A stretch of DNA of 64,000 nt, taken from a virus. Shown here one piece after another: positions 1 to 23,574 of the stretch (position 1 is the stretch's first letter; every line of letters begins with the position of its first letter). Both the position numbers and the translations under genes were made by a program. Location: IMG/VR virus record IMGVR_UViG_3300045971_000163, positions 32,001-96,000 of that record, one strand, 5' to 3'. The notes under the pieces are model-generated. The model did not search any database and was not told the DNA's origin. It worked only from the letters and a program-made list of their open reading frames with translations.

Positions 1-468
1 CTTGCCCCAGCGATCATACTCTGCGCCATAAATGCTTATTGTGTCCCATTCCCCAATCGCGTCAATCACCACTACTGTTGCCCGTTGGAAGGGGCTAGTT
101 TGGAAGGATGCGGCTGCGTGAGATAGATGATGCGGCTGGTGAACAAACTGTGTGAGCGGTTTGAACATTACCTCTGGGCAATGGTTAGCGAGATATTTTT
201 TAATCGTTATGTCGCTAAAATCAAACGCATCAGCGTATTGCCCAGCATATAACTGCCGCGTCTTTTTCAGCCACGGACGCTCGTAATACGATACAATGCT
301 TGGCGGTCCATGCGACAATGCCTCTTGCATGAGCTCAAGACAAAGGTGCTCGTCGTGTTTCTTTTTGCTGTATCGCTCAGAGTGTCCGGCAAATAAAATA
401 TTGCCTTTACTATCCACAACGCTTACCGCAGCGTCGTGAAAGCCAGCACTAATACCAAGGACTTTCAT
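1..468 (-). CDS. Carbamoyltransferase (NodU/CmcH/TobZ family), N-terminal part; runs off the window edge
   Basis: Manual translation (absent from ORF track): MKVLGISAGFHDAAVSVV...HSERYSKKKHD...YYERP...HHLSHAAASF..SPF..ATVVVIDAIGE, the Kae1-like N-domain motifs of this family. Confidence 0.92.
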   Translation of the reverse strand, partial: MKVLGISAGFHDAAVSVVDSKGNILFAGHSERYSKKKHDEHLCLELMQEALSHGPPSIVSYYERPWLKKTRQLYAGQYADAFDFSDITIKKYLANHCPEVMFKPLTQFVHQPHHLSHAAASFQTSPFQRATVVVIDAIGEWDTISIYGAEYDRWGK

Positions 469-566
469 TTATAGATAAACGGGTCCATTTTGCGAAGTTT
501 CTTCAACTTCTTGCGATATGCTATCTCAAGTTTAATCTTGTTGATCAGTCGTTTAATCCAGCCCAT
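465..566 (-). CDS. Small basic 33-aa peptide MGWIKRLINKIKLEIAYRKKLKKLRKMDPFIYK
   Basis: Manual translation; start overlaps the end of the 553..1257 gene and stop overlaps the carbamoyltransferase ATG (ATGA), suggesting translational coupling. Confidence 0.7.
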   Translation of the reverse strand: MGWIKRLINKIKLEIAYRKKLKKLRKMDPFIYK

Positions 567-1257
567 GTTGTTTTCCTTGTAAATATTCTGCTAACTCTTC
601 GGGTGTTCCTACCTGTTCTACTTTGTCTACATATTTAATCTTAATTCCCAAATCCAGTGCATAATTGTACACAGGTGCAACATAAAACTCATTGTTAGTT
701 CTATCGTTCGCAGTTACCATCTTCTCGTATGCTGCTAAGTAATCACCAAACTGTTTCCAGTAGTACATGCCAGCAGTGGCACAATTAGATATCTGTACTT
801 TTTCAGCAACCTTAGTTACGTTGCCGTTTGCGCCTGTGGTGCAATATGACCACTTGTCGCCATAACCTGGAAAGCAGAATATAGTACCGTTTGCAGTCAA
901 TGACTCAACGTCTCTGTCCCAATGTAATAGTTGGTCACTATTCACAATTATTACTTCATCGTCGACACTTACTTCCTCAACAGCTTTGCTCACTGTAGTC
1001 GCGGCACCATCTGTCAATCCGTCAATTGCGACAATGGAGAAGTTTTTAACAAACTTAGCAAATACTTTCTTTAACTTATATTTTTCAATGTGCTCGCGTT
1101 GGCATAAGAATACATGATGCAAATTAAGTAATCCTAAATGCTCAACCACATGTTGAATCATTGGCTTATCTAAGAATGGGATTAACGGTTTGGGTAAGTC
1201 GTAACCCACAGTAGTAAACCTACTCCCCAGTCCAGCCATTGGAATAATAATTTTCAT
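553..1257 (-). CDS. Sugar/polyol-phosphate nucleotidyltransferase (NTP_transferase, GT-A-like fold)
   Basis: IIIPMAGLGSRF...PKPLI, NSDQ, VAEK, EFYVAPVYN, GTPEEL motifs. Confidence 0.88.
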   Translation of the reverse strand: MKIIIPMAGLGSRFTTVGYDLPKPLIPFLDKPMIQHVVEHLGLLNLHHVFLCQREHIEKYKLKKVFAKFVKNFSIVAIDGLTDGAATTVSKAVEEVSVDDEVIIVNSDQLLHWDRDVESLTANGTIFCFPGYGDKWSYCTTGANGNVTKVAEKVQISNCATAGMYYWKQFGDYLAAYEKMVTANDRTNNEFYVAPVYNYALDLGIKIKYVDKVEQVGTPEELAEYLQGKQHGLD

Positions 1258-1850
1258 AATGATAGATATTTTAAGTTATTTAATTGAGTGACGTTATACG
1301 TTTCAAATCCAGCTACTGCCGCAGCATTTAGTGTAGGATGAAAATCGTCTACTACCAATATTTCGTTACGTGGCAAGTTGACCATTGCGGCGATATATTC
1401 AAATGCTTCAGTGCTTGGTTTATTTTTAAGCCCAGAATCATTACCAATCACCAGTTGTCCAGTGTGACCTAAGTTGAAATGGTCTAGTATCATTAATATG
1501 TAATCCACTCTGGCATTAGACACATACGATACGGTAATGCCTCTCTCAAGCAATTTCGTAATAACTGGTATTGTGTGTTCATTATATTCAATAAATTCCC
1601 GGTAATACTTGAGCATGTTAAACTTCCACCTTAGGAACTTTACTCGTTGTTCTGGAGTAAGCGTAATACCTTGAGACTCTTCTAGAAATTTTAACTTTGC
1701 GGTAGTTGGAATAGGAGCGTCAATGAAAATGTCAGTCACTGGAGCAAATCCAAACTTTTTCATAGTTACTTCCATGGAAATATGATTGGCTTCTTTACTA
1801 TCAACCAATACCCCGTCAATGTCGAAGATGACGTGCTTTATATTAGACAT
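1254..1850 (-). CDS. HAD-superfamily phosphatase
   Basis: Motif I FDIDGVLVDS, motif II VSN, KP, motif IV VDD. Confidence 0.88.
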   Translation of the reverse strand: MSNIKHVIFDIDGVLVDSKEANHISMEVTMKKFGFAPVTDIFIDAPIPTTAKLKFLEESQGITLTPEQRVKFLRWKFNMLKYYREFIEYNEHTIPVITKLLERGITVSYVSNARVDYILMILDHFNLGHTGQLVIGNDSGLKNKPSTEAFEYIAAMVNLPRNEILVVDDFHPTLNAAAVAGFETYNVTQLNNLKYLSL

Positions 1851-2716: not shown

Positions 2717-2725
2717 GTACTCACC

Positions 2726-3967
2726 TTAGACTGGTCGAGTATTACCATAATGCACCAATGTGCAACCCCATGACTCAACCACGTCGTGGTCTAAGTATCG
2801 CCATGGATCAACAATGATACTACCGGCCTCAAATGTGCAATAAAAGTCTTGATGATCAGCTTGCTTCATCGTAGTATTACCGTAAGTAGTAGGTGCATGG
2901 TGCGCCATTAAAATAACACCTTTAACCGAGGAATGAATATCGTCCGTCAATGGGTCAATGTAATCGAGTTCAATGCCTGCTTGCTCAACATAATGTCCAA
3001 CCAGCAAACTATAGCTACCATCAATGTAAGTAACATTTGGTTTGAACGCCTTGCCGTGAATCCATACTGGAAGGTTATGTTGTTTAGCTAATTTAATTAA
3101 TTTGTTAGCCATGTTCTCTGCTTGCACTTCACGAGCTCGCATAACCATTTCAAACATGTCGTAGCCTAGGTCAAGTTTTTCTGCCATCCAGCGTAACGCA
3201 ATGTTGTCACGTGGGTGGCATCCACCTGCGTCACCCAATCCTGCTTTCAGGTATGCTGGGCCAGTAATACGGTGTGTAGAACGTGCTAGTGCGTTTGTAA
3301 CAACGTCAACGTTCATGTTGCCGTTCTTCTCTGCTACGTCTTGGATCATGTTTACAATACCAATCTTAGTGCTGATAAATGTGTTATAGAAGATCTTAAT
3401 GCCTTCAGCTTCGTCCCATGTGCCAACTTCGTAGCGTGGATCGTTAACCATAAATGTCTTGTAAAAGTCTGTCAGTATTTTTGCGTCATGTGTAACGTCG
3501 CCGTCCTCAGTCCCAATGATTACCATTTCAGGGTTAACCATATCCCATGCCACACTGCCCATGGCAATCAGGTATGGGTTGTAAATGAAACGTGCGTTAG
3601 TGATCAACGGGCGAAGTTCGCGGCGTGTGGTGCCTGGTAGCACAGTGGAGATAAGAACGACAAGTTGATTTTGTGTTACGTATTTGTTAACGTCGTCAAG
3701 CACGCTCTTGACAATGTCGTAGTTGAAGTCTTTTGGCTCAAGTTCCATACAGGGAATGTGTCCGCCGTATTCTGTTACATGTGGTGTAGGAACAGCGATG
3801 AAAATTAGCTCACGACCCATTACTGCGTCTTGTATCGTAGACATAACGGTGATCTTGTTGCTTTCGACCGTGTTAACATCGTAGCCCGCAACATCGTAAC
3901 CTGCGTCTGCCATAACTTCAGCAGCGACCAAACCCAACTTGCCAATACCAATAAACCCTACTTTCAT
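2726..3967 (-). CDS. ugd: UDP-glucose/GDP-mannose 6-dehydrogenase
   Basis: GFIGIGKLG Rossmann motif, IAVPTP, STVLPGT, AEGIKIFYN, catalytic GGCHPRD, AFKP; RBS AGGAG upstream. Confidence 0.93.
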   Translation of the reverse strand: MKVGFIGIGKLGLVAAEVMADAGYDVAGYDVNTVESNKITVMSTIQDAVMGRELIFIAVPTPHVTEYGGHIPCMELEPKDFNYDIVKSVLDDVNKYVTQNQLVVLISTVLPGTTRRELRPLITNARFIYNPYLIAMGSVAWDMVNPEMVIIGTEDGDVTHDAKILTDFYKTFMVNDPRYEVGTWDEAEGIKIFYNTFISTKIGIVNMIQDVAEKNGNMNVDVVTNALARSTHRITGPAYLKAGLGDAGGCHPRDNIALRWMAEKLDLGYDMFEMVMRAREVQAENMANKLIKLAKQHNLPVWIHGKAFKPNVTYIDGSYSLLVGHYVEQAGIELDYIDPLTDDIHSSVKGVILMAHHAPTTYGNTTMKQADHQDFYCTFEAGSIIVDPWRYLDHDVVESWGCTLVHYGNTRPV

Positions 3968-3993
3968 GTGCTCTCCTAAATAAGTATGTATAT

Positions 3994-4000
3994 TATTTAT
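3994..4000 (-). promoter_or_regulatory. Late promoter (ATAAATA) for the ugd-carbamoyltransferase operon
   Basis: T4 late-promoter-like motif 27 nt upstream of the ugd ATG; the same motif recurs upstream of structural operons. Confidence 0.65.
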
Positions 4001-4031
4001 TCTGTATCTGCTGTCAAGATTTATTTAACAG

Positions 4032-4087: not shown

Positions 4088-4119
4088 ACCGGCATTGTAA
4101 CAAGAAAGGGTGATTTACC

Positions 4120-5834: not shown

Positions 5835-7055
5835 TTATTCAAGTGTTACGTTTAATTTTGATAGCACAGATTCAAACTCATCAATGATGAAGTTTACACA
5901 TTTTCCTTTTCTTTGAATTAGCATATCTCTATTTTTTATTAACCGTGGCATTAACTCATCTCGTAATGATGTGCATGCTTCGATAGTGTACTTGGCATTG
6001 ATGCGTAAAATTTCAGCAAACACTGCTGTAAGCCTATCTTTTCCAGAAACAATTGAGTCATACGAATGGTCTATAATATCATCAAACACATCAAATCCTG
6101 AATCACGCAAATATGCAATAATACCAGCACCGCCATTAATAATAGATAAATGATAGAAATAAAATGTCTTGTACACTTTGTCAGTCGGAAATACATACGG
6201 AATACCTTCAAATTGACTGTTATAATCCATTTGGATAGTTTCGTTGACTATTGAGAAAAGACTATATCTAAAAAATGGTTCTATTGATGAGCCAATGACA
6301 GGATTTGTATCATTGACTGATACTGACTCGTCTACATAGTCAAGATACACTGGTGAGCCAACTCTAGCAAAGTCATCCTCTGTAATGCTTCCGTTGGTGC
6401 ATTGTCTAGTTTCAGCAATAAGATCAGGAGTTAACTTCATTATATATGAATAATAACTTTCATTAGAAATGCCAGTCTTACACAAAAATGATACCATTGC
6501 TGCTCTGTGTGGTTTTGACACTCTGTTTAAACACAAAAATTTTTTCTTAAGGTCTTCAGTTGAGGGATGTGGGAAATTAATTTCAGTAGTGTATACTTCG
6601 CATTGCGGATATCGTAAAATATTTATTTTCCCGCGCCCGCCAAAATACCCTTTACTAAACATTGCGTCATATACAGCCGTCGCATTTACTGCTCCAGTAA
6701 CATAAAATATGGATTGCGTGGGGAAAAGTCTTTTATCTGCCCATTTATGTATATCTTGTAAAATATAAAAATATGCTTCCTTTTGTAAACTTATAAGTAC
6801 GCCAGCAGTACCATTCTGAATCCGTTGTTCTACATCAATAGGTATAAATTGTCTGTCTAAATAATCCATAAATATATCACTAGTATAATCATAGTTAAGT
6901 TCATAAAGTATAAATTTAAATGAGTTAGTCAATAATTTATACTTGTAATCAATTACTGGTATTTCATAATTGTGCAGAAGTAATAATTCGTCAGATATTG
7001 ATTTGTAGGCAGCACCTGGCGAACTATTTTGTATTATTGCAATACGATTATTCAT
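5835..7055 (-). CDS. Putative glycosyltransferase-like protein (GT-B/exostosin-like C-terminus)
   Basis: FLCLNRVSKPHR...IVNET...TDKVYK...LRDSGFDVFDDIIDHSYD; paralog of the next gene; AT-rich. Confidence 0.5.
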   Translation of the reverse strand: MNNRIAIIQNSSPGAAYKSISDELLLLHNYEIPVIDYKYKLLTNSFKFILYELNYDYTSDIFMDYLDRQFIPIDVEQRIQNGTAGVLISLQKEAYFYILQDIHKWADKRLFPTQSIFYVTGAVNATAVYDAMFSKGYFGGRGKINILRYPQCEVYTTEINFPHPSTEDLKKKFLCLNRVSKPHRAAMVSFLCKTGISNESYYSYIMKLTPDLIAETRQCTNGSITEDDFARVGSPVYLDYVDESVSVNDTNPVIGSSIEPFFRYSLFSIVNETIQMDYNSQFEGIPYVFPTDKVYKTFYFYHLSIINGGAGIIAYLRDSGFDVFDDIIDHSYDSIVSGKDRLTAVFAEILRINAKYTIEACTSLRDELMPRLIKNRDMLIQRKGKCVNFIIDEFESVLSKLNVTLE

Positions 7056-8391
7056 TGTGATATACCTGATTTATTAAATCAACTATTTTACTATCGAGTG
7101 CTGTGTTTTGTATAAGTAATGTATAGTTATGCTCTAATATATCACGGCATAATGCTGCCTGATCCATAAACAGTTGATAATTATATGCATATCTCTTTAT
7201 ATTATCTACTATAATACGATGTCGATCAAACATGTTATCGAACAGGTCGTATGATTCGTCAAATAAAGTGGGGAACGTTTTAAACCCCATATCACGCAGC
7301 ATTTGCAAATTTCCTTTATCGCCAACGAGCATAAATGGACGTTTATAAAATATGGATTTGAATGTTTTTTCACTTATTACCGGAGACGAGCCGGGAAAAT
7401 TAGTAAACCCACCTGTCTCAGAAATCAAATCAAAACAAGTGTCATATATCCATTTATCATTGTATAAAAAGTTTTGATCTTCGTTGCTGAATAAAATGTC
7501 ATCGTCAATACGCTTTGGAGGCAAAATTGTTGTTGCTACTTCATGAAAAACTGCGTAATCTTCGTCATTGGCTGGTAGCTGCTTTCCTTCAAGCATGTCA
7601 AATCCATAAATAGCACATCTAGTGTCACGTTGATTTTCAGTGAAATTCACTATGCCTGATATATCTGTCATAAAACTAACCCTAGCATGTTTAACTAAAT
7701 CGGCAATTATTAGACGACGTAGGAAAAAGATACGATGCCTCCTCGGTTGCATATTTAAATGTAGGAACAAATATTGTTTTTGTTGTGCAAAATATTGGCC
7801 TAGATCAACTCGATGACTAGTTTGTTTCAAATATGAGCGGCGATCGTGTATTGCTCGCAACGGTAAATTAACTGATACCACTAACGGTGGGCATCCATCA
7901 TGACTCTTATTTGCAGAGGACACTAATATACGTCCAGAATAATTTGGATTAAAACAAGTTAACATGTCTGAAACCATAGCTAACGCTTGCGTCCCAAATC
8001 TAGGAAATTCGTAAACCTCTAACGAATAATCATATAATATAGAAATATTATTGTTAACGATTTTTGAAAATTGACTTTCTGTCAAATGATATAGATAACT
8101 ATTTAACCCTACATCTAATTCAGACTTACATGGAATTAGATATATATAAATTTTATCACTTGCAATTATTGCGTCATCCAATAATTCATATGAAATATTG
8201 GTAGATTGGATAATAGGTGATCTATGAATATTTTCACCTGGCATATATTTGCCCAAAAATGCATTCATCCATTCACGTGACTGGTTCATCCTTGTCGGAA
8301 ATATATCAGTCATTGTTTCATATGCAGTTTTTATGTAAATTTCACCGTCTAATGCTTTAATTGAGTCTACTAAAAATACTATTGGTTTCAT
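7048..8391 (-). CDS. Putative glycosyltransferase-like protein, paralog of 5835..7055
   Basis: FLHLNMQPRRHR...LISET...SEKTFKSI..KRPF...LRDMGFKTFPTLFDESYD. Confidence 0.5.
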   Translation of the reverse strand: MKPIVFLVDSIKALDGEIYIKTAYETMTDIFPTRMNQSREWMNAFLGKYMPGENIHRSPIIQSTNISYELLDDAIIASDKIYIYLIPCKSELDVGLNSYLYHLTESQFSKIVNNNISILYDYSLEVYEFPRFGTQALAMVSDMLTCFNPNYSGRILVSSANKSHDGCPPLVVSVNLPLRAIHDRRSYLKQTSHRVDLGQYFAQQKQYLFLHLNMQPRRHRIFFLRRLIIADLVKHARVSFMTDISGIVNFTENQRDTRCAIYGFDMLEGKQLPANDEDYAVFHEVATTILPPKRIDDDILFSNEDQNFLYNDKWIYDTCFDLISETGGFTNFPGSSPVISEKTFKSIFYKRPFMLVGDKGNLQMLRDMGFKTFPTLFDESYDLFDNMFDRHRIIVDNIKRYAYNYQLFMDQAALCRDILEHNYTLLIQNTALDSKIVDLINQVYHNE

Positions 8392-13676: not shown

Positions 13677-14160
13677 AATTTATCCCCCTAATCATATTTT
13701 GGCTATTAAAAATATTTGCTATCAATTGATCATGCGAGTCCGGCGGCGTTCTAACTAAAAGTTGAAACAAAATCAACATTGCTCCAGTGGACCCATTAGC
13801 AGTAATAATGCCGGTGGGAAATGCGGCCAACACCCCACCATTGTGTAATTTTGATGCATGCAAACATCTTTCAGTGACGTTACCGGAAGGCGCTATTAAG
13901 GATTTAGATCTAATAACGTTGTGTTTATTAAAACATATAATAACTTGTTTATAATGAAAATGAGCTACACTTTTTAGAAATTCTGCTATGTCTACTTCCA
14001 TATCAACAAATTGATTAGATTCCGTTAACATGAAAATTTTTTCAGTTATGTAATTAATCCAAAGTAAATCTGTCGGAAATTCAGTAAAATCTTCACCAGT
14101 GGGGTCTACCGTTTCTAATACTATTTGCAATTCTATAGTTTTTGTGATAAAATTCTTCAT
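13663..14160 (-). CDS. Hypothetical protein
   Basis: 165-aa ORF tightly packed in the operon; AT-rich. Confidence 0.55.
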   Translation of the reverse strand: MKNFITKTIELQIVLETVDPTGEDFTEFPTDLLWINYITEKIFMLTESNQFVDMEVDIAEFLKSVAHFHYKQVIICFNKHNVIRSKSLIAPSGNVTERCLHASKLHNGGVLAAFPTGIITANGSTGAMLILFQLLVRTPPDSHDQLIANIFNSQNMIRGINFGNT

Positions 14161-14163
14161 TAA

Positions 14164-15015
14164 TCAAAATCGTTGTATTAAATAATCTGCAATTGTTTTC
14201 TGACCATGCTTGTTATAGTGCCCACCAGCACATCGTAGATGTGATATTCCGAGGTTATCTCCCAAGTCTTCAAAATCTTCTGGAACAACGTCAGGTAATA
14301 TATTTCCATATCTTAAAATATCATATACTAATTGTTTCGTTGATGCTTGCACTTGCATTTTTCGGAAAATGTGCGGCACTGTAGGTATCAAATTTAAAAA
14401 TATTACTTTTTCTACATTATTTACTTTTAACAAATTTGCAGTGTCAACTAATGTCATTGCCCAACTTATTAAAAAATTAGTTACATTAAAATGTGTAATG
14501 AATTCTCTAGCAAATTCCTTTGAAAAATCATTTTGACTGTTTTCTACATTCCCGGGAAAAATTGAGCGCGAAGTAAATCTGCTTAACACAAATTCTAAAT
14601 CATCATTGCGATCTGTCAGCATATTTATCCACACATCGTTGTGCTCTAATAATTGCATAACTCGTGATGGAACTGTTACTCCAACAATCCACGCCGTATC
14701 TTTTGGGTCTACGCTCTTCTTCTTTAGTGATTCAATCAGCAAGTATGTTTGCAGTTTAATTCCTTCTTGACTCGCTCCTGACTGCGCGAAGTTTATATAA
14801 TCATACCCTAACTCTTTAGCCATCAATGACGTAAACCGCATGGTATCAAGTAACTCAAAATACCGGCGAAACATTGCTTGATCAACTGGAATATCAAATT
14901 CCAATGTGGTCATTTCGTCGTGTTTAAGATGCGAAAACTCGTCAGGATAATGTGTGCGTACAAGTTCAGCGCCAAAGATAAAACTATCCCCAACCGCGCA
15001 TAATGTTTTAGCCAT
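14164..15015 (-). CDS. SGNH/GDSL hydrolase-like protein (start reassigned to ATG at 15015)
   Basis: MAKTLCAVGDSFIFG, NFAQSGAS, C-terminal GGHYNKHGQ; ATG overlaps the upstream stop region. Confidence 0.65.
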   Translation of the reverse strand: MAKTLCAVGDSFIFGAELVRTHYPDEFSHLKHDEMTTLEFDIPVDQAMFRRYFELLDTMRFTSLMAKELGYDYINFAQSGASQEGIKLQTYLLIESLKKKSVDPKDTAWIVGVTVPSRVMQLLEHNDVWINMLTDRNDDLEFVLSRFTSRSIFPGNVENSQNDFSKEFAREFITHFNVTNFLISWAMTLVDTANLLKVNNVEKVIFLNLIPTVPHIFRKMQVQASTKQLVYDILRYGNILPDVVPEDFEDLGDNLGISHLRCAGGHYNKHGQKTIADYLIQRF

Positions 15016-16213
15016 GTAATAACCTCGCGAACTCGGGAAAAGTTTCCGCAAACGATGTATGACGCGATGCGTCTAATGCTGTATTAAACTGCAAGCCTTG
15101 TTCTAGTATATCGGTTCCTTTGCTACCGTTAAACATGTTAATCAACATATCTATTTTCCAGCCATCAAGCCCGTTGCATTTCAATAAAATTTCTCCCGTT
15201 AATGCTGCGGGCAGTGCACTCACAGATAAAAATGCTGGATCGTGTACGAAGTTCATGTGTACATGCAACCCACGAGCTTTCATAAACTCATGAAACTCTG
15301 GCAAATAATACACGTTCATCCAACTTACAGTTTGGCATACGCTTGTGTTAATCCACGGTATTGACTGTAACTTATCTAAGTTAGTAATAACATCATCCCA
15401 CTTAGTGCCACTGCGTATGTATTCATTACGGTTACCCAAGTCGTCAATGCTACATGATACCTGTACCGTTTTAAAGTAACTCCATAACTCAATCAAGTTG
15501 TCAGGCAAGTTGGTCATGTTTATGTTGTACCACAGTGTAATCTGCTTGTTCAACCCCCTATCAATTAAGCGTTCCAAATAATGCCAATGCTTTTCGACAA
15601 GAGTGGGTTCGCCACCGTTGATATACAGTAACTCAACGTCTTTGCTATGCTCTAATAAATCGTCCCAGAAAGCTTCACTTTCTGTCCAAGAAGCGTTGAT
15701 TTTCGCATCGTATTGTGTCACAAACTTCAGTTCTTGCTGTAGTTTCTTATACTCTGGAGCCCACTGTGTACTTGATGCTGGATTACATGTTCTGCATTTT
15801 ACATTACACAGATTACCTAAGCGTAGTTCAACAAACTTTAAGTTGACTGGTATTGTGCCGTCTGCTTGCGTTATAGCACGAGCCATATCTTCAGTGAACC
15901 CAAGTTTTTCGTTTTCCTCAATGCGTTTACTTCTTACTCCATTTGCTTCCTCACGATAGCACCGTAAACATGCACGAGGAGTTTCATTATTCAGCATTTG
16001 TAAGCGTGTTTGTTTATAGTAGTCGCTATTCATAATCTCGACTACCTTATTCTCGTTCAAGTTAAGATGTATGGGGCTATTTTTGGGATTACCATCAACA
16101 AAATTTCGAGCACTGTTCCTTGAATAAGTAAAGTCACTCACGCAGCAAAGCGTGACGCCACCATGCGGGTGCGTTGCTAAGTGTATCCACGGTAAACTAC
16201 AGTAAGTGCTCAT
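15008..16213 (-). CDS. Radical SAM enzyme with N-terminal Twitch/SPASM-like Cys domain
   Basis: YCSLPW...LCC...CLRC then GNLCNVKCRTCNP.SS, NGGEP, SIDD. Confidence 0.9.
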   Translation of the reverse strand: MSTYCSLPWIHLATHPHGGVTLCCVSDFTYSRNSARNFVDGNPKNSPIHLNLNENKVVEIMNSDYYKQTRLQMLNNETPRACLRCYREEANGVRSKRIEENEKLGFTEDMARAITQADGTIPVNLKFVELRLGNLCNVKCRTCNPASSTQWAPEYKKLQQELKFVTQYDAKINASWTESEAFWDDLLEHSKDVELLYINGGEPTLVEKHWHYLERLIDRGLNKQITLWYNINMTNLPDNLIELWSYFKTVQVSCSIDDLGNRNEYIRSGTKWDDVITNLDKLQSIPWINTSVCQTVSWMNVYYLPEFHEFMKARGLHVHMNFVHDPAFLSVSALPAALTGEILLKCNGLDGWKIDMLINMFNGSKGTDILEQGLQFNTALDASRHTSFAETFPEFARLLHG

Positions 16214-17616
16214 ATGTTATTCCACCATTCAAGCAGTTTTGGGTTCTCTGCGTAAATATCTTCTATTGTACACGATGCCTCTCGTATCTCAGCAAGTTTT
16301 GACTGCCAACCCTTACCGTTTTTAGCACCTTGCTTGTATTCATTCGGGTATGCTTCTTCATGTGTTGGACGTGTCTTCATTGACTTGAGCGTATTGACTA
16401 GCGACATTTGTTTATGTGACGCTTTTGGTTCCATGTACGCAAGTAAGTCGTTAATCATTTCATCAAGTATTGCCCGCGGCCATGCCATGGGCGTAAACAT
16501 TATGTCAGCATGGAACGCGAACATTATTTTCGTCTCAATCCGCACATCAAGCTCTTGGCTTAGATCAAAAAACTCTTTGAGGCTAAACATGCCAGGGCCA
16601 GTGATGGTCAAATCCAAAATCATTTTGCTGTGGCCACCAGGCAGTGTTGTACCTTGCGTAAAGTTGTCTATCCAAGTTGCCCAGTTTAACCCAGTGCGTA
16701 TAAACTCTGCTATCTCGCCCACACCGTCCATGCTCGCGCACATCATCCAGTCTTTGAAGTGAGGCAGATAGTCATACAAGTTTTTGCCCTTATAACTCAC
16801 TCTGCTTAGGTTGGAGTTGTATCGTAGGTAGCAGTTTTTAGCAGACCCATTGCGCACCATTTCCTCTAATGCCCACCAGTGCATTTCATACATGAGAGGC
16901 TCACCGCCTACCCAATATATTTCCTCTACTATACCTCTGCTAATAGCATCCCTAAACTCAGGCTCAACTACCTCTTGCTGAAACGTTTGCATTGCAGTTT
17001 TTACTTCAGGAATCATAAACGGCTGGTTCTTAGGGTCCCATAAGTTGTGCTGTTTCTTTTCTACTTCCCAGCTTGAGCTAAGTTGTTCTCCACACATACG
17101 ACACTTAAAGTTACACAGGTTACTGTAGCGATAGTCAAAGCTAATGGGCTCCATTGTCGTGTGCCCAGTTTCGTCTGTACTGTCAAAGCATTGCTGTATT
17201 TTGTTGTTAAACAAAAAGCCGGTGAACCACTTCCTGTAAGAGCTGATGCTAAGGATGTCGTCATTACATACATCGCATTGTGGAATACGTTCACCAGCCA
17301 TTAGCTTTTTGCGTATGTCTTTCATGTACTCACTATTCCAATGCTCTTTAAGTGACACTGGATTGTAATCAGATAAAGCTGTCTTAGACTCGGTTACTGC
17401 ACCATACTTTGCATCGTTTGACGAGTCAATGTATTGCTTTTGGAAGCTATGCTCTTCACGTGACGCACAGCAAAGCCTACGTTCAGATTGTGGACTGATG
17501 TAAGTATGTGTCCATGGTGCAGTGCAGAACACCTTGTTAGGTGAGTCCGGACTGCATTGACCGTTTGCCCAAATTGGGATAACCTTGTATTGCTTTACAG
17601 CTTTTTTCTTAGCCAT
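16210..17616 (-). CDS. Radical SAM enzyme with N-terminal Twitch/SPASM-like Cys domain
   Basis: FCTAPW...LCC...CDVC then SNLCNFKCRMC...SS, VGGEPL, SMDG. Confidence 0.9.
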   Translation of the reverse strand: MAKKKAVKQYKVIPIWANGQCSPDSPNKVFCTAPWTHTYISPQSERRLCCASREEHSFQKQYIDSSNDAKYGAVTESKTALSDYNPVSLKEHWNSEYMKDIRKKLMAGERIPQCDVCNDDILSISSYRKWFTGFLFNNKIQQCFDSTDETGHTTMEPISFDYRYSNLCNFKCRMCGEQLSSSWEVEKKQHNLWDPKNQPFMIPEVKTAMQTFQQEVVEPEFRDAISRGIVEEIYWVGGEPLMYEMHWWALEEMVRNGSAKNCYLRYNSNLSRVSYKGKNLYDYLPHFKDWMMCASMDGVGEIAEFIRTGLNWATWIDNFTQGTTLPGGHSKMILDLTITGPGMFSLKEFFDLSQELDVRIETKIMFAFHADIMFTPMAWPRAILDEMINDLLAYMEPKASHKQMSLVNTLKSMKTRPTHEEAYPNEYKQGAKNGKGWQSKLAEIREASCTIEDIYAENPKLLEWWNNI

Positions 17617-19153
17617 TTTTTCCTAATGTATCGTTTGCAGTATCCCAGCCGTGGCCGTTATCTGTATCGTAATCTTCAGTAGTTGCAGGGTCGCCAGCGC
17701 GAGTACGCTCTGTTTCACTTGCGTATACTTGAGTAAGAATCTCAGTCGCAGTTGGTGTTTCAACATCAATACTATCTAAGAAGTCTACGAACTCTTTAGG
17801 GAAAGTAGCACGGAAGTCTTTGCCGCGACGAACGTCGTATTGTAAGTAAAAGTTCTTGAAGTCGTTGTATAACTTAGGAGTCTCTGCCGTGTTCTTATGC
17901 GGAGTTTTAACTACGTCTAAGTAGTCAACTAATCGTAATGTCTGAGCACGTTCCCAGTCGTTAAATATTTGTTGCCCGGTGTGGTCCTTTTCATCAGCAG
18001 TAATCTGCACGTTGTACCAGTCTTCTAACTTCACTTTGTACTTGTGTTTGATCTCTTCTGGTAGTATTGCGCAGGCTTGGAAGCTAGGGAATCGCAAAAT
18101 ATTAAGCGACATTGCACACCATTGCGCTCCATGCTTACGCTTAATAGCCAACATGTCGTCCATAAACTCAGTGATGCTTGCGAGGCAAAGGCTATTGATA
18201 GTCATCATACAATGAAGTCTACGGACGTTACCCTCAACAATAATGCGCTCAATGTTTGCTAACCATTGCTGATAATCCATACCATCGCGAATATACTCGC
18301 TGTGAGCACCAATGCTTTCATTACTTGTATAAATGTCAAACTGTGGAACATAATGGCTCATTGTAATGAGCTTGTCCAACAACGCTTTCTTGGGAACAAG
18401 ATTGGAGTTAACTGCATAGCGCATTTTTGCTCCTTTTTCAGGGTTTGCCTTAAACCAGTCAAACAACTTCCATACAGAGGGAGCCATGAGGGGTTCGCCT
18501 CCTGTAATCCGAATCTCTTCAAGATTATCTGACAGGCTGCTATTCCACCATTTCCAGAAGGCTTGGATGTAGGGATTGTCGTCGTCTTTTTCGGCGGCGT
18601 TTTCTGCCCACGGTGCTGTATCAATGAAGTGCCCTCGTCCATCAGATACGATGTTACGATAGGGACCAAACTTTTTAATGTCGCGTACCCAAGCAGTGCT
18701 AAAGGCAGGATTGCAATAAGAGCAAGAAAAATTGCAAGTGCGCTCAAAGCTAATTTCCAACGTCTTGAGATCGACATCCGCGTCCCACGGCATTTGTGTT
18801 GATTTGGTAATGTCTGCATCTTCGTAAATCTCTGTCTTAAATACACGGTCGCTAACATTATCACGATCCATATCCTCCACTTTCCAGCAGTATTCGCATT
18901 CGTGCGGTCGTGTGCCTTCTAACATCATCTTACGCATTTTCTTCTTGTGTTGCGTATTGTGGATGGCAGACGGGTTGTCTTTAATCTCGTCCAGATCAAT
19001 TTTGTGGGCTGGTGGGTGGTGACAACTTGTCGTCTGTCCATGCCCCAACCATATTGTTGCGTTATACCATTTTGCTGAACAGTACGAATCAGAAATAGGG
19101 TCAATGACCCTAACCTTAAACTCTTTTAGACTCTCGTTTGCTTTGCGACCCAT
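17609..19153 (-). CDS. Radical SAM enzyme with N-terminal Twitch-like domain
   Basis: YCSAKW...SCHHP...CEYCWKVE then CNFSCSYC, TGGEPL. Confidence 0.9.
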   Translation of the reverse strand: MGRKANESLKEFKVRVIDPISDSYCSAKWYNATIWLGHGQTTSCHHPPAHKIDLDEIKDNPSAIHNTQHKKKMRKMMLEGTRPHECEYCWKVEDMDRDNVSDRVFKTEIYEDADITKSTQMPWDADVDLKTLEISFERTCNFSCSYCNPAFSTAWVRDIKKFGPYRNIVSDGRGHFIDTAPWAENAAEKDDDNPYIQAFWKWWNSSLSDNLEEIRITGGEPLMAPSVWKLFDWFKANPEKGAKMRYAVNSNLVPKKALLDKLITMSHYVPQFDIYTSNESIGAHSEYIRDGMDYQQWLANIERIIVEGNVRRLHCMMTINSLCLASITEFMDDMLAIKRKHGAQWCAMSLNILRFPSFQACAILPEEIKHKYKVKLEDWYNVQITADEKDHTGQQIFNDWERAQTLRLVDYLDVVKTPHKNTAETPKLYNDFKNFYLQYDVRRGKDFRATFPKEFVDFLDSIDVETPTATEILTQVYASETERTRAGDPATTEDYDTDNGHGWDTANDTLGKNG

Positions 19154-19155: not shown

Positions 19156-20691
19156 TTATCCTTTAGTGAATGCTTTCATGCACTCGATGTAATATTTACG
19201 CATTTCAGGGAACACTTCCATAAATTCTGTGTTGCGCCTGTTATCGTACTCAGTTATGAACTCGTAGAATGTCACTTTGTTTGTTAGTGTTTGCTGTGGT
19301 GGCAATTCCTGTTCCATTATAGCAAGATCACGTTTAACTTTCAATATCTCATATGGTTTGAATCCCTCAAACGTTGTAGAGTAATCGTCTTGCTGTACAT
19401 TCTCTTCCATAAACGCGAGCACTTCCTTTACTTGTTCAATGCCCCATTGTCCAGCATTTTGAATACTGAACCACGGAGGGTATCTCAAAATTGGTATATC
19501 GAACCAAATACGCTGATGCTTTTTAATCGTTACAGGCGGATGTTTGAAATCACCATTATCTGGCGGGTATATAACATAGTCCTCTTGCACACGACCACCA
19601 AACTCTTTGCGCAAGTCTAAAATCATTTGCAAAAACTGTCGCAGCGATGGAATACTTAGCAAGGTAAACGTGTTGATGAAACTAATACTTGAGTATTTTG
19701 TTTCACGCAAGTAAGTACGCACGTTAGCTAACATTTGCTCAAAGTCTAATCCAGTACGCATATACTCTGCTTGCTTACCATATCCGTCCACGCTGACAAA
19801 CACCATAAAGTGTTTGTATGCTGGCGCCACATACCAGTTATTTTGCGAGTTCTCGTTGAAGTTTTCTTTGTCTTCCCAAATACGAACTTCCTCTAATGCT
19901 TGCACTTTGCTTATAAACTTGGTAAACAGTTTCTGATCTGGAGGGCAAAAGTTGCTCGTAATAGATAGCTCAAGTTGTCCATTTGGATGTTCGTTTACAT
20001 AGTCAAGAACTTTAAAAGTGTTCTTGTCCATCAACGGCTCGCCACCCGTCATTCGGAATACTTTTAGCTGCCTATATATTGTAGGCCACCATTCCCAAAA
20101 TGCCGATACATACGGATTGTCTTTGTTTGCTACTTTAAGCGGCATCATACCGCGCTTGGCTAATGCGTCTATGTTATTGTGCGCACCAGTGCTCAACATG
20201 TAGGGACCAAACTTTTTAATCTCATCTTCCCATGTTGTGGACAAGTGTGGAGAGCAGTACATACATTTAAAATTGCATGCTTGGTTGAAGTTTACCTCTA
20301 CATAACGAGGGGTAACGCTTTCATCTATAGTGCCGCTTGCTACTTCGTTAAAGGTGGGCGCTGCCCACCATTCACTAGAACGGTAATGACGGTCAGATAA
20401 ATGGTCTCCTGCGTCCTCTACTTTCCAGCAGTAAGCACAGCCAGGTGGTCGCTCGCCAGCGATCATTTGCTTACGCTCGTGTATTTTTATTTTTGTATTG
20501 TGTAGCGCAGATGGTGATGCTGCTAACTCGTCTAGCGGAATAAGGTGCGCTGGCGGGTGATAACATGATTGTGTCATGCCTGCTGGCAAGTTGATGCTTA
20601 CTTGCTGCCATTTTGCTAGGCAGAGTGAAGGCGACACTGCATTTAACTTGGTTCGCATTTCTGCGGCAGCGTCATTATATTCCATTACCAA
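19156..20691 (-). CDS. Radical SAM enzyme with N-terminal Twitch-like domain
   Basis: LCLAKW...SCYHP...CAYCWKVE then CNFKCMYC, TGGEPL, SVDG. Confidence 0.9.
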   Translation of the reverse strand: MVMEYNDAAAEMRTKLNAVSPSLCLAKWQQVSINLPAGMTQSCYHPPAHLIPLDELAASPSALHNTKIKIHERKQMIAGERPPGCAYCWKVEDAGDHLSDRHYRSSEWWAAPTFNEVASGTIDESVTPRYVEVNFNQACNFKCMYCSPHLSTTWEDEIKKFGPYMLSTGAHNNIDALAKRGMMPLKVANKDNPYVSAFWEWWPTIYRQLKVFRMTGGEPLMDKNTFKVLDYVNEHPNGQLELSITSNFCPPDQKLFTKFISKVQALEEVRIWEDKENFNENSQNNWYVAPAYKHFMVFVSVDGYGKQAEYMRTGLDFEQMLANVRTYLRETKYSSISFINTFTLLSIPSLRQFLQMILDLRKEFGGRVQEDYVIYPPDNGDFKHPPVTIKKHQRIWFDIPILRYPPWFSIQNAGQWGIEQVKEVLAFMEENVQQDDYSTTFEGFKPYEILKVKRDLAIMEQELPPQQTLTNKVTFYEFITEYDNRRNTEFMEVFPEMRKYYIECMKAFTKG

Positions 20692-21641
20692 CCCTCAAGT
20701 TTCCTAATTACTGAAATCTCTGTCGTCATCAGTGCTAGGTTTTTGTGCCCTGTTGCGTAGTGGTGCTTGAAAAACTTTGATTGGTCGTAGTCGTAGTCAA
20801 CAATAGGCAGCGACAATTTTTGTTGTAACCCGTTCCATATGTCGCATTGCAAACTTGACCAATCACGAGAATCTATTTCTTGAAATTCAAACTCTACATC
20901 TTCCCACAGTTCTTCTAGTTTAGCAAAGTCTTGTACATCACGGTAGTCCCAGTCTTTGCCAAGCATAGTTAAGTAAGTGCCGTATCGTGCGCCCCACATC
21001 GCGTAGTTACCGTTCGTTACATCAGCACCAACACTCTGCCAGATACATAGATGGTCGTAGTTACGATTATGTACTTTTTCCTCAAACTCTTTGAGCGTGG
21101 GTTTTGCTCCACGGTCGAGGCACATTTTTACACCTTCCCTGAAGCCTGCTCTCCATGCTTGGAACGGTGAAGCGTTAGGGTAAGTGGTTGAGTAGCAGTT
21201 GTGCATGGCAATGTATTTTGGATCATAGCAAAACTCAACCGCAGTGTCATCACTACCATTGCTAGCCTCATGTGTTTTCATGTTGTAAACAAACTCTTTG
21301 CTCCAGCATGACATGCCACCGTTACCGTACATTAGTCCGTTGATGTGGTTACGGGCTTTCCAGCGAAATGCTTTACCCTTGTCCTCTACATCGTCTAGTG
21401 TAAGTTGTAGGTTAAAAAATTCTGCGTCAGGTAGATTATCGCCGTCAATGAGCACAAAGTAATCTGTGTCGCTTGCATCTGCCGCTGCCTTGTGCGCTGC
21501 ATCACTACCCTTAACCCCGTCTACTCGTTTTGCCCACGGCACCATGTTTTGAATCTTAATCCAAAACTCTTCTTTTTTCGGCTCATCAAACGTAAGGAAA
21601 ACGCAATCCAAATCCGCAATATCAATAATCTGTTTAGTCAT
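20685..21641 (-). CDS. GT-A fold glycosyltransferase-like protein
   Basis: VFLTFDEP, RVDGVKGSDAAH, DxD motif IDGDN, YGNGG, AWRAGFREGVK. Confidence 0.65.
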   Translation of the reverse strand: MTKQIIDIADLDCVFLTFDEPKKEEFWIKIQNMVPWAKRVDGVKGSDAAHKAAADASDTDYFVLIDGDNLPDAEFFNLQLTLDDVEDKGKAFRWKARNHINGLMYGNGGMSCWSKEFVYNMKTHEASNGSDDTAVEFCYDPKYIAMHNCYSTTYPNASPFQAWRAGFREGVKMCLDRGAKPTLKEFEEKVHNRNYDHLCIWQSVGADVTNGNYAMWGARYGTYLTMLGKDWDYRDVQDFAKLEELWEDVEFEFQEIDSRDWSSLQCDIWNGLQQKLSLPIVDYDYDQSKFFKHHYATGHKNLALMTTEISVIRKLEGW

Positions 21642-21990
21642 ATTTTATGTCGCTGTAATATTCGTGTTCAAAATCTTCGTCTTCTTCAAGTATCAACGCA
21701 GCATGTTTCTTTGCTACCTTATACTGATCGCCGCCTTGTGCAAGCTTTTTATATTTTGGCGACCTGTCAATCAATTTCAACTTGCCGTTCCGTACACAAT
21801 ACTCAAAAAAGTTATCGTACTCAACTCGTGTCACCACAATGTAGTTACCAGATTCTGGATGTTGCTGCATACAGCACATTATGATATCACCAGCATCATT
21901 ATAGTAAACTCTGTACTCTAACTCAAGTGGTTTGACTGGTTCTATTAGCTCAAATGCTTTTATTAGCTCATCTAAAGAGTTCATGCTCAT
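21634..21990 (-). CDS. Hypothetical protein
   Basis: 118-aa ORF overlapping both neighbours. Confidence 0.65.
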   Translation of the reverse strand: MSMNSLDELIKAFELIEPVKPLELEYRVYYNDAGDIIMCCMQQHPESGNYIVVTRVEYDNFFEYCVRNGKLKLIDRSPKYKKLAQGGDQYKVAKKHAALILEEDEDFEHEYYSDIKYD

Positions 21991-22822
21991 ACTCCTTAAT
22001 AATATCGTCCGTTACCCATTCTTTTTCGTGGTAGTGTACGGGATGATATTGATTTACAGTGCCAATACGCAACATTGGCAAATCAAGTTCAAATGTCGTA
22101 GTTTCGTGCCATGGTTTTTCTGGCCATTGATTGATAGCTGATTTCATGTGTACAAAGTTGATGAATTCTGCTGTAGGCAATGTACATTGTTCAACACCTA
22201 GCAGTTTAGCAGTTAACGCATACACCACATCAGTAGTTGGATGTGGATCTCTACAGTTTTTTAGTGTGTTGCTTACTGTATCCCAGTTTTCAAAAATCAT
22301 TCTCGCTACATTAAAAAATGTCGTTGAAAGTCGTGTGTATCTAAAATACATTAGCCCATTGTAAGTATCTGGCAACTGGTTGTCGTCAAATACACGGCGA
22401 TATTTTCTGCTCGTTGCTGTTTTTTGCTGATAGTCTTTACATCCAGTGCTTAACACTATATCACGCAACCTAAACGCATGCCACCAATGCGAAATACTTC
22501 TGGTGAATAAAATGTCGCTCTCTACTTTTATCGTTTCTTTAAACGGCGTTAGGTCGCCCACTTGCCACTCGTTGGACAACTTCCATTCTTCGTCTTTAGC
22601 AGTGTCGTTATCAATCAAAATAACATAGTCAAACACTTTCCTATGTTTGTTTGTTACTTCTTTCATTGTCTGCTCGTCAACTAGCACAGCATACTTTTCT
22701 GTTGGCATCGTTAGCTTAATGCTCATTGCTTGTAAGTATGCCAGCCGCAGATAATCTGTGTCGCTATTGTTTTGCGCAATAGTCACAAATCCTTTTTGCT
22801 CTTGGTGTGGTGTTATCCGCAT
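21968..22822 (-). CDS. GT-A (GT8-like) glycosyltransferase-like protein
   Basis: GFVTIAQN..DYLRLA, TPFKETIKVESD, C-terminal FVHMK; paralog of the next gene. Confidence 0.55.
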   Translation of the reverse strand: MRITPHQEQKGFVTIAQNNSDTDYLRLAYLQAMSIKLTMPTEKYAVLVDEQTMKEVTNKHRKVFDYVILIDNDTAKDEEWKLSNEWQVGDLTPFKETIKVESDILFTRSISHWWHAFRLRDIVLSTGCKDYQQKTATSRKYRRVFDDNQLPDTYNGLMYFRYTRLSTTFFNVARMIFENWDTVSNTLKNCRDPHPTTDVVYALTAKLLGVEQCTLPTAEFINFVHMKSAINQWPEKPWHETTTFELDLPMLRIGTVNQYHPVHYHEKEWVTDDIIKEYEHELFR

Positions 22823-23574
22823 ATTCGTGTTATGAACCGTAAATGTGCATCGCTTAACAAATACTGTTTGTCAATGACATGTATATTTTGTCTCGCAATA
22901 GCGTGTGCTTTATTTTCCTCTTTTACTATTAGCAAGTTACCCTTTACTGTAATGCTAGACACTTTGTCTTTAATCGTTAACATTGTAAAGGGTAGCTTAC
23001 ACTTTTCTTCCGTTGCGTATCCGTTTAGAACATGGTTGGCAATGGTGAATGCGTAGTCGTTGCGGAAGTTTGATTGATCAATCTGAAACAGTTTACAGTA
23101 ATACGCATAGTTACGCTGGACTTTACCCGCTAGATCAAATAGTTGCTTTGCTTTTAGTGTTTTCTTAAACGCTATCACCGTTGCCCACACATAGGGCAGG
23201 CTAGTAATGCCCATTGTGTATGTTGCGTCAGTGGCAAGCATCTTGTTATCGTGAACGATTTGATAATCTTCTAAAGTGTTTAGTATTTGCACTAACGAGT
23301 CATCTAGCATTAAGTAGTCGCTGTCAATGAGCAATGTTTCATCATACGGGCTTAACTCAAATGCGTTAAATCTGTTGCCGTTACGCCATTCTGTGCCGCC
23401 CTCATACTCACCTATACGCTTGTTTTCTAGTGTATTTTCTATATCTTCGTCAGTGATGATTGTGGTAGGCAGGTTCAGTGTGCTTTTAACTAGTTTTGCT
23501 GCTCGTGCTGCTATTTCCACATAGTCTACTGTGGGCGTATTAAACGCAAACATCACTACACCGCGTGTGCTCAT
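22813..23574 (-). CDS. GT-A (GT8-like) glycosyltransferase-like protein
   Basis: GVVMFAFN..DYVEIA, SPYDETLLIDSDY (DxD), WATV, FRNDYA. Confidence 0.6.
   Translation of the reverse strand: MSTRGVVMFAFNTPTVDYVEIAARAAKLVKSTLNLPTTIITDEDIENTLENKRIGEYEGGTEWRNGNRFNAFELSPYDETLLIDSDYLMLDDSLVQILNTLEDYQIVHDNKMLATDATYTMGITSLPYVWATVIAFKKTLKAKQLFDLAGKVQRNYAYYCKLFQIDQSNFRNDYAFTIANHVLNGYATEEKCKLPFTMLTIKDKVSSITVKGNLLIVKEENKAHAIARQNIHVIDKQYLLSDAHLRFITRICG

Follow-up and report, generated by a model that had tools for sequence, protein, structure and literature searches.

A candidate glycan-tailoring pathway with a fixed array of radical SAM enzymes beside the tail-fiber genes of an uncultured jumbo myovirus

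Chloroviruses, giant viruses and a small number of mycobacteriophages encode glycosylation of their own particles, and to our knowledge none of these systems includes tailoring by radical S-adenosylmethionine (SAM) enzymes. Here we describe a biosynthetic island in IMG/VR virus record IMGVR_UViG_3300045971_000163, a linear record of 104 kb with a completeness of ~29% (CheckV). We analyzed bases 32001-96000 of this record (hereafter the window, 64,000 nucleotides; coordinates are those of the window unless the record is named). The island adjoins the tail-fiber genes, and we propose, tentatively and at a little under an even chance, that it encodes a soluble cytoplasmic pathway leading to a heavily tailored glycan, probably on virion fibers, with the radical SAM chemistry acting on sugars. 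The distinctive part of the system is a fixed set of four radical SAM enzymes without a known reaction.

Virion glycosylation in mycobacteriophages involves phage-encoded soluble glycosyltransferases (GTs) beside structural genes (Freeman et al. 2023, cited in PMC12619734). The island similarly encodes soluble GT-fold proteins near structural genes, and weak fold matches of the model of its 318-amino-acid (aa) GT-A-fold protein include mycobacteriophage GTs. In contrast, the mycobacteriophage systems have a small number of GTs and are not known to include genes for radical SAM, carbamoyl or sugar-nucleotide enzymes, and glycosylation is proven there, whereas we infer it here. The island also resembles the capsid or fibril glycosylation systems of chlorovirus PBCV-1 and giant viruses, in which virus-encoded cytoplasmic machinery acts independently of membrane carriers. 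The 318-aa model matches PBCV-1 A64R (Z 7.6, root-mean-square deviation [rmsd] 4.1, 141 aligned), and, like the multidomain GTs of PBCV-1 type, a 1102-aa protein of the island has several domains and a GT-A-like end, but without the DxD motif. However, those viruses infect a different host domain, and their systems lack a radical SAM array.

BtrN-type twitch radical SAM enzymes oxidize or epimerize sugar carbons. The N-terminal-twitch (N-twitch) enzymes of the island share with these dehydrogenases and epimerases, and with BlsE, a radical SAM core joined to a Cys-ligated auxiliary cluster, a sugar-pathway context and a pyridoxal phosphate (PLP) enzyme nearby. Unlike in the BtrN type, where it is C-terminal, the auxiliary domain is N-terminal here, and the similarity is marginal (BlsE 7.6e-4, BtrN 0.8). 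Tailoring of the Campylobacter jejuni capsule with glucuronamide uses a dehydrogenase, HisC/CobD-type PLP enzymes and a HAD phosphatase; the same dehydrogenase, HisC/CobD-class PLP and HAD trio is encoded here, but no amide ligase was found. The closest named family is NF033640 (N_Twi_rSAM, NCBIfam), to which no reaction has been assigned. Its N-terminal four-Cys motif before CxxxCxxC recurs here in four tandem paralogs, and, compared with the family at large, the paralogs here belong to a fixed, glycan-like phage module and represent four orthologous types. An abundance of radical SAM genes in an uncultured phage also has a precedent: a T4-like marine viral genome contains 12 of them, which were discussed only as Fe-S clients (Nishimura et al. 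2017, PMC5332604).

An earlier reading of the window from its letters, without database searches (the original prediction), had listed six radical SAM enzymes in the island. Each of the six carries one intact CxxxCxxC motif:

8388..10298, minus strand: class B methyltransferase-type radical SAM enzyme with B12 binding, 636 aa; PF02310 and PF04055 above cut-off; CPYQCTFC
11764..12666, minus strand: 300-aa radical SAM enzyme, SPASM domain at its C-terminus; Radical_SAM 55 bits, SPASM 36.5 bits; CNVDCKFC
15008..16213, minus strand: NTw1, N-twitch radical SAM enzyme; NF033640 361.6 bits; four N-terminal Cys and CNVKCRTC; clade of 16 rows, 99% support
16210..17616, minus strand: NTw2, N-twitch radical SAM enzyme; NF033640 309.6 bits; clade of 16 rows, 100% support
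17609..19153, minus strand: NTw3, N-twitch radical SAM enzyme; NF033640 295.3 bits; clade of 18 rows, 99% support, including Ralstonia phage RsoM2USA
19156..20691, minus strand: NTw4, N-twitch radical SAM enzyme; NF033640 294.2 bits; clade of 13 rows, 100% support

All four NTw paralogs exceed the curated cut-off of NF033640 (170 bits), with matches spanning model positions ~1-398. The family alignment is invariant at C5, C24, C82 and C85, which form the N-terminal auxiliary site, and then at C136, C140, C143 and a GGEP motif. In a FastTree phylogeny of 120 N-twitch proteins (SH-like support only), each window paralog has a separate starred clade (13-18 rows) to which almost all phage loci contribute one member; orthologs of NTw2 are 70-78% identical. 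The extra N-twitch paralogs of related phages fall in variable clades of the same tree. Because four orthologous clades each hold one member per phage in nearly every locus, the four enzymes appear to have four distinct roles. Assignment of the B12-type enzyme to the KedN5 family of C-methyltransferases was rejected (248 bits, where the cut-off is 700, over model positions 5-388 of 624).

Since the original prediction had proposed checking co-occurrence across related phages, we scanned viral contigs and found 57 loci that encode relatives of NTw1. The island proteins were searched by tblastn against these loci and that of the cultured phage RsoM2USA (58 loci in total). The four N-twitch types were matched in all 58. 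Homologs of the GT-A protein occurred in 38 loci and those of the carbamoyltransferase in 36; the GT-B-like C-terminus was matched in 28 and the 1102-aa protein in 25, compared with 22 loci for the dehydrogenase and 20 for the GT8-like gene. As the loci are cut off at 10 kb or by contig ends, each per-gene count is a lower bound. Gene order is fixed, running from a 289-aa protein through a 116-aa protein, two GT8-like proteins, the GT-A protein, the N-twitch array, a mini open reading frame (mini-ORF) and the carbamoyltransferase to the 1102-aa protein. As judged from these sequence matches, the conserved core is the GT-A gene, the four NTw orthologs, the carbamoyltransferase with its mini-ORF and the 1102-aa protein. 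The run from the GT-A gene through the four N-twitch genes to the carbamoyltransferase recurs in at least 57 viral contigs and in RsoM2USA; this conserved core, the feature that tells most about the island, is absent from the original prediction.

Around this core the gene content varies. N-twitch arrays reach ~8-10 paralogs in relatives, and a 14.5-kb variable cassette (468-15051) in the window sits where relatives carry such extra paralogs. Encoded in the cassette are two radical SAM enzymes (SPASM type and B12 type), together with the PLP enzyme, the GT-B pair and the sugar-nucleotide enzymes. When 119 unlabelled ORFs from 16 related loci were pooled for a Pfam scan, the matches included methyltransferases (4) and NeuB (3), together with a sugar C-methyltransferase domain, DegT, an epimerase and 2-oxoglutarate oxygenases. 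The lineage-wide theme, as far as sequence families indicate it, is sugar tailoring with a fast-changing accessory set.

A tblastn search with an N-twitch protein matched only 4 phage records, and megablast of the 24 kb against cultured phages found no match. In RsoM2USA, an N-twitch gene with 54% identity and a weaker second match accompany the carbamoyltransferase and mini-ORF genes. This phage also encodes a homolog of the 289-aa protein, which lies among very large ORFs (1257 and 1369 aa) that are annotated only as hypothetical. Since RsoM2USA is cultured and carries this minimal version, the chemistry and its target are directly testable.

The N-twitch profile matches 5,325 clusters (50% identity) at E up to 1e-30. 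Cellular homologs are ~30% identical, come mostly from Bdellovibrionota and form tandem arrays of up to seven. Some bacterial rows nest in the phage NTw1, NTw2 and NTw4 clades of the FastTree phylogeny, a hint that these phages and predatory bacteria have exchanged such genes. Among the bacterial loci (L067-L145), several contigs labeled as metagenome-assembled genomes (L088, L091 and L115) are clearly phage. Some metagenomic proteins of 800-1200 aa (P0334, P0335 and others) contain two or three N-twitch domains, apparently in a single chain; they are either natural fusions of tandem genes or gene-calling run-throughs. A literature search found no functional study of the N-twitch family or of the module, and no published function for the GT-A partner. 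Both families are large.

The original prediction had counted about six GT-like proteins and had recommended fold searches for each ORF. We find support for five glycosyltransferase-fold proteins: one GT-A, two GT8-like, one GT-B and one weaker GT-B paralog. The call on a 336-aa ORF gained no support:

20685..21641, minus strand: GT-A-fold protein, 318 aa, with an invariant DxD; AlphaFold2 (AF2) predicted local distance difference test score (pLDDT) 83.7; fixed neighbor of the radical SAM array
21968..22822, minus strand: GT8-like (glycogenin-like) GT-A protein, 284 aa; family profile matches glycogenin-1 at 1.8e-6
22813..23574, minus strand: paralog of the GT8-like protein, 253 aa; hhalign against the 284-aa profile 99.4% probability, E 1e-21
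7048..8391, minus strand: GT-B-fold glycosyltransferase-like protein, 447 aa; AF2 pLDDT 80.3
5835..7055, minus strand: 406-aa protein, weak paralog of the adjoining 447-aa GT-B protein; blastp 4e-6 over ~95 C-terminal residues only
12666..13676, minus strand: 336-aa protein; GT-like call without support

Fold searches confirmed the GT-A and GT-B assignments, which profile searches of the PDB by sequence did not reach (no match for either family). Residues 5-156 of the 318-aa model form a GT-A domain whose VIA matches include B4GALNT1 (Z 9.4, rmsd 3.4, 142 aligned), STIV A197 (Z 8.8) and BcsA (Z 8.6). The top rows are GT-A enzymes, and D66 and D68 of the DxD motif do not vary among 14 sequences. 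Matches at Z 7-8 include nucleotidyltransferases, whose fold is similar, so transferase chemistry is a probable rather than a certain assignment for this protein. Its family comprises at least 8,000 clusters (90% identity), all unnamed and none with a Pfam family. The 447-aa model matches EXT1-EXT2 (VIA Z 12.3, rmsd 4.2, 287 aligned), with nearly all rows above Z 7.5 being GT-B enzymes, and Foldseek matched it to TreT (5.8e-5, probability 0.99). The glycogenin match of the 284-aa family is limited to profile positions 2-109, and neither the 284-aa nor the 253-aa protein has a Pfam match. The 406-aa ORF had no match in Pfam or PHROG. For the 336-aa ORF, no support as a GT was obtained: hhalign against the three GT profiles gave <2% probability, there was no Pfam, PHROG or NCBIfam match, and its Atlas look-alikes are viral hypothetical proteins only.

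Sugar-nucleotide supply and editing enzymes are encoded mainly toward the left edge of the window:

1..468, minus strand: NodU/CmcH-type carbamoyltransferase, first 156 codons; Pfam Carbam_trans_N 139.4 bits, Carbam_trans_C 171.8 bits
465..566, minus strand: mini-ORF, 33 aa, basic, with C-terminal DPFIYK; overlaps the nucleotidylyltransferase and carbamoyltransferase genes
553..1257, minus strand: sugar-1-phosphate nucleotidylyltransferase; PF00483 41.5 bits against a cut-off of 21.2
1254..1850, minus strand: HAD-IA phosphatase; HAD_2 58.2 bits
1838..2716, minus strand: SGNH-like protein, 292 aa (putative O-acyl esterase or transferase); GDS, PGGS and DGH motifs
2726..3967, minus strand: nucleoside diphosphate (NDP)-sugar 6-dehydrogenase (uronic acid-forming); UDPG_MGDP_dh N domain 69 bits, central domain 59.7 bits
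10760..11767, minus strand: PLP enzyme of the HisC/CobD class (aminotransferase or decarboxylase); Aminotran_1_2 100 bits
14164..15051, minus strand: SGNH-like protein, 295 aa; first sequence of the family alignment

These domain scores bear out the carbamoyltransferase, NTP-transferase, HAD, UGD and PLP enzyme of the original prediction at the level of family. At the level of exact function, the carbamoyltransferase scored 151 bits against a cut-off of 1000 for the NodU equivalog, and the dehydrogenase fell below the cut-offs of TIGR03026 (156.8 vs 189.8) and of the UDPG_MGDP_dh C domain (21.6 vs 30). The NCBIfam matches of the nucleotidylyltransferase are all sugar-1-phosphate nucleotidylyltransferases, each below its own cut-off, and every NCBIfam equivalog of the PLP enzyme was likewise below cut-off. 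The complete carbamoyltransferase has 505 aa, and its homologs in the related loci are 45-66% identical.

The two SGNH proteins of the original prediction were recovered through their family. Both belong to a recurrent family of ~280-aa proteins in related loci, and the profile of this family, with both ORFs inside, matches GDSL/SGNH structures at 1.6e-6 to 1e-4. G21, S23 and H278 are invariant in the alignment (block I Ser and block V His) and G92 is nearly invariant (block II Gly); block III was not identified in it. Single-sequence PDB searches with the two ORFs gave no match, and the 292-aa ORF also had no Pfam match.

ORFs with the ending DPF[IV]Y[KR] occur in 28 loci, including RsoM2USA, and in most of them stand directly upstream of the carbamoyltransferase gene. 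Complex prediction of the mini-ORF product with the carbamoyltransferase gave a median score of 0.56, compared with 0.01 for the best of three controls, with at least 90% of contacts agreeing between runs and a partner pLDDT of at least 63. In the benchmark of this score, 58 of 80 solved complexes attain the mark, as do 2 of 110 mismatched pairs, with only 7 of those 80 complexes, and both mismatches, at 0.60 or under. The modeling thus gives weak support to the 33-aa product as a candidate partner of the carbamoyltransferase.

The remaining features on which our reading depends are the head of the operon, its promoters and the structural genes next to it:

23571..23921, minus strand: 116-aa protein; homologs at the same position in loci L058, L012, L040 and L057
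23974..24843, minus strand: 289-aa Ser/Thr/Ala-rich protein, first gene of a long operon
24864..24874, minus strand: GATAAATA motif, 24 nt upstream of the 289-aa ORF; the sole such motif before genes down to 10760
10307..10325, both strands: palindrome with GATAAATA on each strand, 19 nt and 28 nt upstream of the starts of the B12-type radical SAM gene and a 155-aa ORF, respectively
3990..4017, minus strand: left-operon promoter region, with AATAAATA (site 3994) overlapping a sigma-70-like TTGACA-16-TAATAT
24862-53990: fiber and baseplate proteins (gp38-like adhesin, collagen-like fiber, wedge, hub/lysozyme)
54120-55106, plus strand: gp55-like late sigma factor; phrog_12791, 3.4e-74

Homologs of the 289-aa protein head the same operon in L058, L012 and L040, where up to three tandem copies are present. 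The protein has no similarity to the neighboring 648-aa fiber protein. We consider it a putative fiber-associated structural protein and a candidate acceptor. Its Ser/Thr content is 27%, and that of the neighboring fibers is 18-21%.

The motif GATAAATA occurs in 10 copies in the window, 7 of which lie within 60 nt upstream of a start on the same strand (binomial 3e-10). The starts it precedes include those of the baseplate wedge (47126), the 648-aa fiber (26843), the 289-aa ORF (24867) and the B12-type radical SAM enzyme. Exact TATAAATA is not enriched in the window (2 copies vs 6.3 expected). In T4-type late units, a gp55-like sigma factor acts with a TATAAATA-like element ~20-40 nt before the starts of structural genes; here, such a sigma factor is encoded and the variant GATAAATA is enriched before starts. 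Between 10298 and 24843, GATAAATA precedes no gene start, its one copy there, at 14622, falling within the coding region of the 295-aa protein. The stretch of fifteen genes that begins with the 289-aa ORF and ends with the PLP enzyme therefore resembles a single late operon. The genes for the B12-type enzyme, the GT-B protein and the 406-aa protein look like a second. Since baseplate and fiber genes share GATAAATA and a gp55-like sigma factor is present, we infer late expression for two of the three operons from these motifs.

The third operon, from the dehydrogenase to the carbamoyltransferase, is ambiguous in timing (early, late or both) because AATAAATA overlaps the sigma-70-like promoter. 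Of the late promoters in the original prediction, the palindrome at 10307-10325 has the motif on both strands, whereas site 3994 reads AATAAATA and is shared with a possible host-type element. Scans for sigma-70 promoters and terminators were uninformative on operon ends, with terminator-like sites at the shuffled expectation.

In the reading that we favor, the nucleotidylyltransferase, the phosphatase and the 6-dehydrogenase would, from their family membership, supply activated sugars including a uronic acid. A 4,6-dehydratase-like short-chain dehydrogenase/reductase (SDR) and a DegT-type aminotransferase outside the window would yield an amino-dideoxy sugar. The activated sugars would then be strung together by at least five glycosyltransferase-fold proteins. 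Editing would be performed by the carbamoyltransferase with its mini-peptide, by the SGNH-like proteins (O-acyl handling) and by one B12-type, one SPASM-type and four N-twitch radical SAM enzymes. Two of the three operons would be read by the phage late sigma factor together with the fiber genes, and the acceptor would be a phage-made protein, most likely the Ser/Thr-rich fiber proteins at the operon head and next door.

For the four N-twitch paralogs we favor hydrogen abstraction on sugars, by analogy with BtrN-type enzymes: each would act on a different sugar carbon, oxidizing or epimerizing it, and would open sites for amination and other tailoring. A more specific proposal, which we regard as possible but doubtful, is that they perform carbohydrate chemistry not previously described, four fixed steps plus lineage-specific extra ones, on a glycan or NDP-sugar that ends up on the tail fibers. 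If true, this would be the first radical-SAM-tailored viral glycan, and diversification from 4 to ~10 N-twitch paralogs per phage would tune adsorption or shield the fibers from host defenses. A product on the fibers would bear on host range, on evasion of defense and on how receptor-binding proteins are read from sequence.

The choice of acceptor rests on several observations. No 19-residue window of an island protein exceeded a Kyte-Doolittle value of 1.6, apart from a borderline 1.64 in a 165-aa protein, and Pfam scans of the island found no initiating transferase, flippase or polymerase family. The lack of a membrane protein speaks for an acceptor in the cytoplasm rather than a lipid-linked pathway to the host surface. 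Fiber homologs adjoin the module in the diverged loci L031 and L091 as well as here, so the adjacency to tail-fiber genes reported in the original prediction is upheld; together with the Ser/Thr content of the operon-head protein and the fibers, it favors virion proteins.

Several points weigh on the other side. Twitch and SPASM radical SAM enzymes more often act on peptides, and the N-twitch profile matches solved structures only weakly and in a mixed way (BlsE, viperin, SkfB, YydG, MoaA, BtrN). Bacterial N-twitch neighbors are heterogeneous, with GT2 in only 5 of 140 and no dominant partner family in a pooled Pfam scan, which thus leaves the choice of substrate undecided. DNA, too, is glycosylated by proteins with GT folds, and T4 beta-glucosyltransferase matches the 447-aa model at Z 10.8. 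Site 3994 may be an early promoter of host type. In RsoM2USA, the 289-aa homolog lies ~160 kb from the N-twitch and carbamoyltransferase genes, so fiber adjacency may merely reflect conserved genome order. The virion-glycan reading of the original prediction is partly supported: it keeps its sugar-nucleotide, GT and tailoring pathway, its place behind the fibers and a late-type motif on two of three operons, and loses certainty at 3994.

The same sugar chemistry might instead serve a host glycoconjugate (lipopolysaccharide, capsule, S-layer, flagellin or pili) or a free oligosaccharide, possibly blocking superinfection or changing the surface of the dying cell. Aquatic phages widely carry genes for carbamoyltransferases and sugar-nucleotide enzymes as auxiliary functions directed at the host, the module shares its patchiness and variability with surface-glycan loci, and the left operon has a sigma-70-like promoter. 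We nevertheless consider this unlikely: the island has no phosphoglycosyl transferase, flippase, polymerase or membrane protein, two of its operons carry the structural-gene motif GATAAATA, and its location behind the fiber genes is conserved. It is also quite improbable, in our view, that the radical SAM array matures a protein while glycosylation proceeds separately, for example by epimerization, C-methylation or cross-linking of the 289-aa protein or the fibers in the manner of ribosomally made peptides that carry post-translational modifications (RiPPs). The array is always syntenic with the GT-A and carbamoyltransferase genes, whereas the 289-aa gene was found in only 4 of the 58 loci; sugar enzymes lie between paralogs in many loci; and no leader peptide or RiPP recognition element was found. 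In favor of protein maturation are the preference of SPASM/twitch enzymes for peptides, with SkfB and YydG among the PDB matches, the low-complexity 289-aa protein at the operon head, present in up to three copies in relatives, and the occurrence of several radical SAM genes in an array in proteusin-type clusters.

In a further alternative, the GT-fold and tailoring enzymes would assemble a glycan, or a group of another kind, on the bases of the phage DNA. Known routes of thymidine hypermodification involve radical SAM and PLP enzymes, and the 447-aa GT-B model resembles the T4 beta- and alpha-glucosyltransferases (the latter at Z 9.1). DNA glycans of phages have been documented (Pyle 2024, as cited in PMC12619734). 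Hypermodified DNA is very unlikely here, however, since the structural-type motif points to late expression, whereas DNA modification genes are early; moreover, the thymidylate synthase is canonical (342 bits vs a cut-off of 327), and no hydroxymethylase or base kinase was seen in the record, which covers ~29% of the genome. The TobZ-type carbamoyltransferase, GenK-type B12 radical SAM enzyme, BtrN-type twitch domain and weak BlsE similarity (7.6e-4) all recall pathways to aminoglycoside- or nucleoside-antibiotic-like molecules. We think it hardly probable at all that such a free small molecule is made late in infection, as at least five GT-fold proteins, a 1102-aa multidomain protein and synteny with fibers are atypical of those clusters, and the island contains no exporter or resistance gene.

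The record is a piece of a Rak2/Atu_ph07-like jumbo myovirus genome: the baseplate wedge protein (1134 aa) shares 31-35% identity with its counterparts in jumbo myoviruses including Atu_ph07, Phosso, SCTP-2 and Rak2. From 24843 to the left edge of the window, all ORFs except two are on the minus strand, and neighboring minus-strand genes overlap at 14 of 22 junctions, by 1-44 nt, in agreement with the overlapping start and stop codons and co-orientation noted in the original prediction. That prediction also gave an island of more than 23 kb running past the left edge. The genes are where it placed them and the island does continue, the carbamoyltransferase gene reaching 1050 nt further (to record position 30951) with four more genes beyond it; the size was understated, as the whole island spans ~32 kb. 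The four genes encode an endonuclease, the 1102-aa protein, the DegT-type sugar aminotransferase and the SDR 4,6-dehydratase/epimerase, the last two as a pair just left of the window. Other features of the island and its left flank are as follows:

record 26878-30186, minus strand: 1102-aa protein, adjoining the carbamoyltransferase
record 30214-30954, plus strand: DNA/RNA non-specific endonuclease, between the carbamoyltransferase and 1102-aa genes; PF01223, 4.9e-45
4032-5824, plus strand: FG-GAP repeat protein, 553 aa, on the opposite strand within the island
10337..10804, plus strand: 155-aa protein that may be a truncated GDPD-like enzyme; convergent with the PLP gene, 45-nt overlap
13663..14160, minus strand: 165-aa protein; no Pfam or PHROG match
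21634..21990, minus strand: 118-aa protein; no matches, one homolog, in locus L011

The N-terminus of the 1102-aa protein consists of about five tandem repeats of ~67-85 aa with a PNPFEPPYIYVFGNPWY motif, followed by two middle domains. The C-terminal domain and the 318-aa GT-A protein are homologs (98.4%), although other residues stand in place of the DxD. Atlas look-alikes of the 1102-aa protein are viral hypothetical proteins only. The FG-GAP gene has its own sigma-70-like promoter (TTGACT-17-TAAACT with a TG extension) and looks like an inserted, separately regulated cassette rather than a member of the pathway. The GDPD-like enzyme of the original prediction retains a weak phmmer match to a Thermus GDPD (E 0.041, residues 6-58 only) and has no Pfam or NCBIfam match; the ORF corresponds to phrog_34507 (function unknown) at 1e-23. 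Thirteen window ORFs had no Pfam match even at E up to 10, and a PHROG search of these ORFs added this family alone.

Mobile and nucleic acid-related genes flank the island. The opposite-strand non-specific endonuclease recurs in the same arrangement in locus L058. The thymidylate synthase region, at record 22099-24588, lies just left of the sugar genes and is flanked by a NUMOD3/HNH-like ORF and a GIY-YIG/I-TevI-like ORF. On the other side of the island, a single ORF of 3989 aa occupies 31696-43665 (minus strand) between the fiber genes and the baseplate wedge gene. The gp55-like sigma gene is followed by SbcD- and SbcC-like genes (region 54120-60446, plus strand) and, past the latter, by two paralogous homing-endonuclease ORFs at 58701-59453 and 59721-60446 (plus strand).

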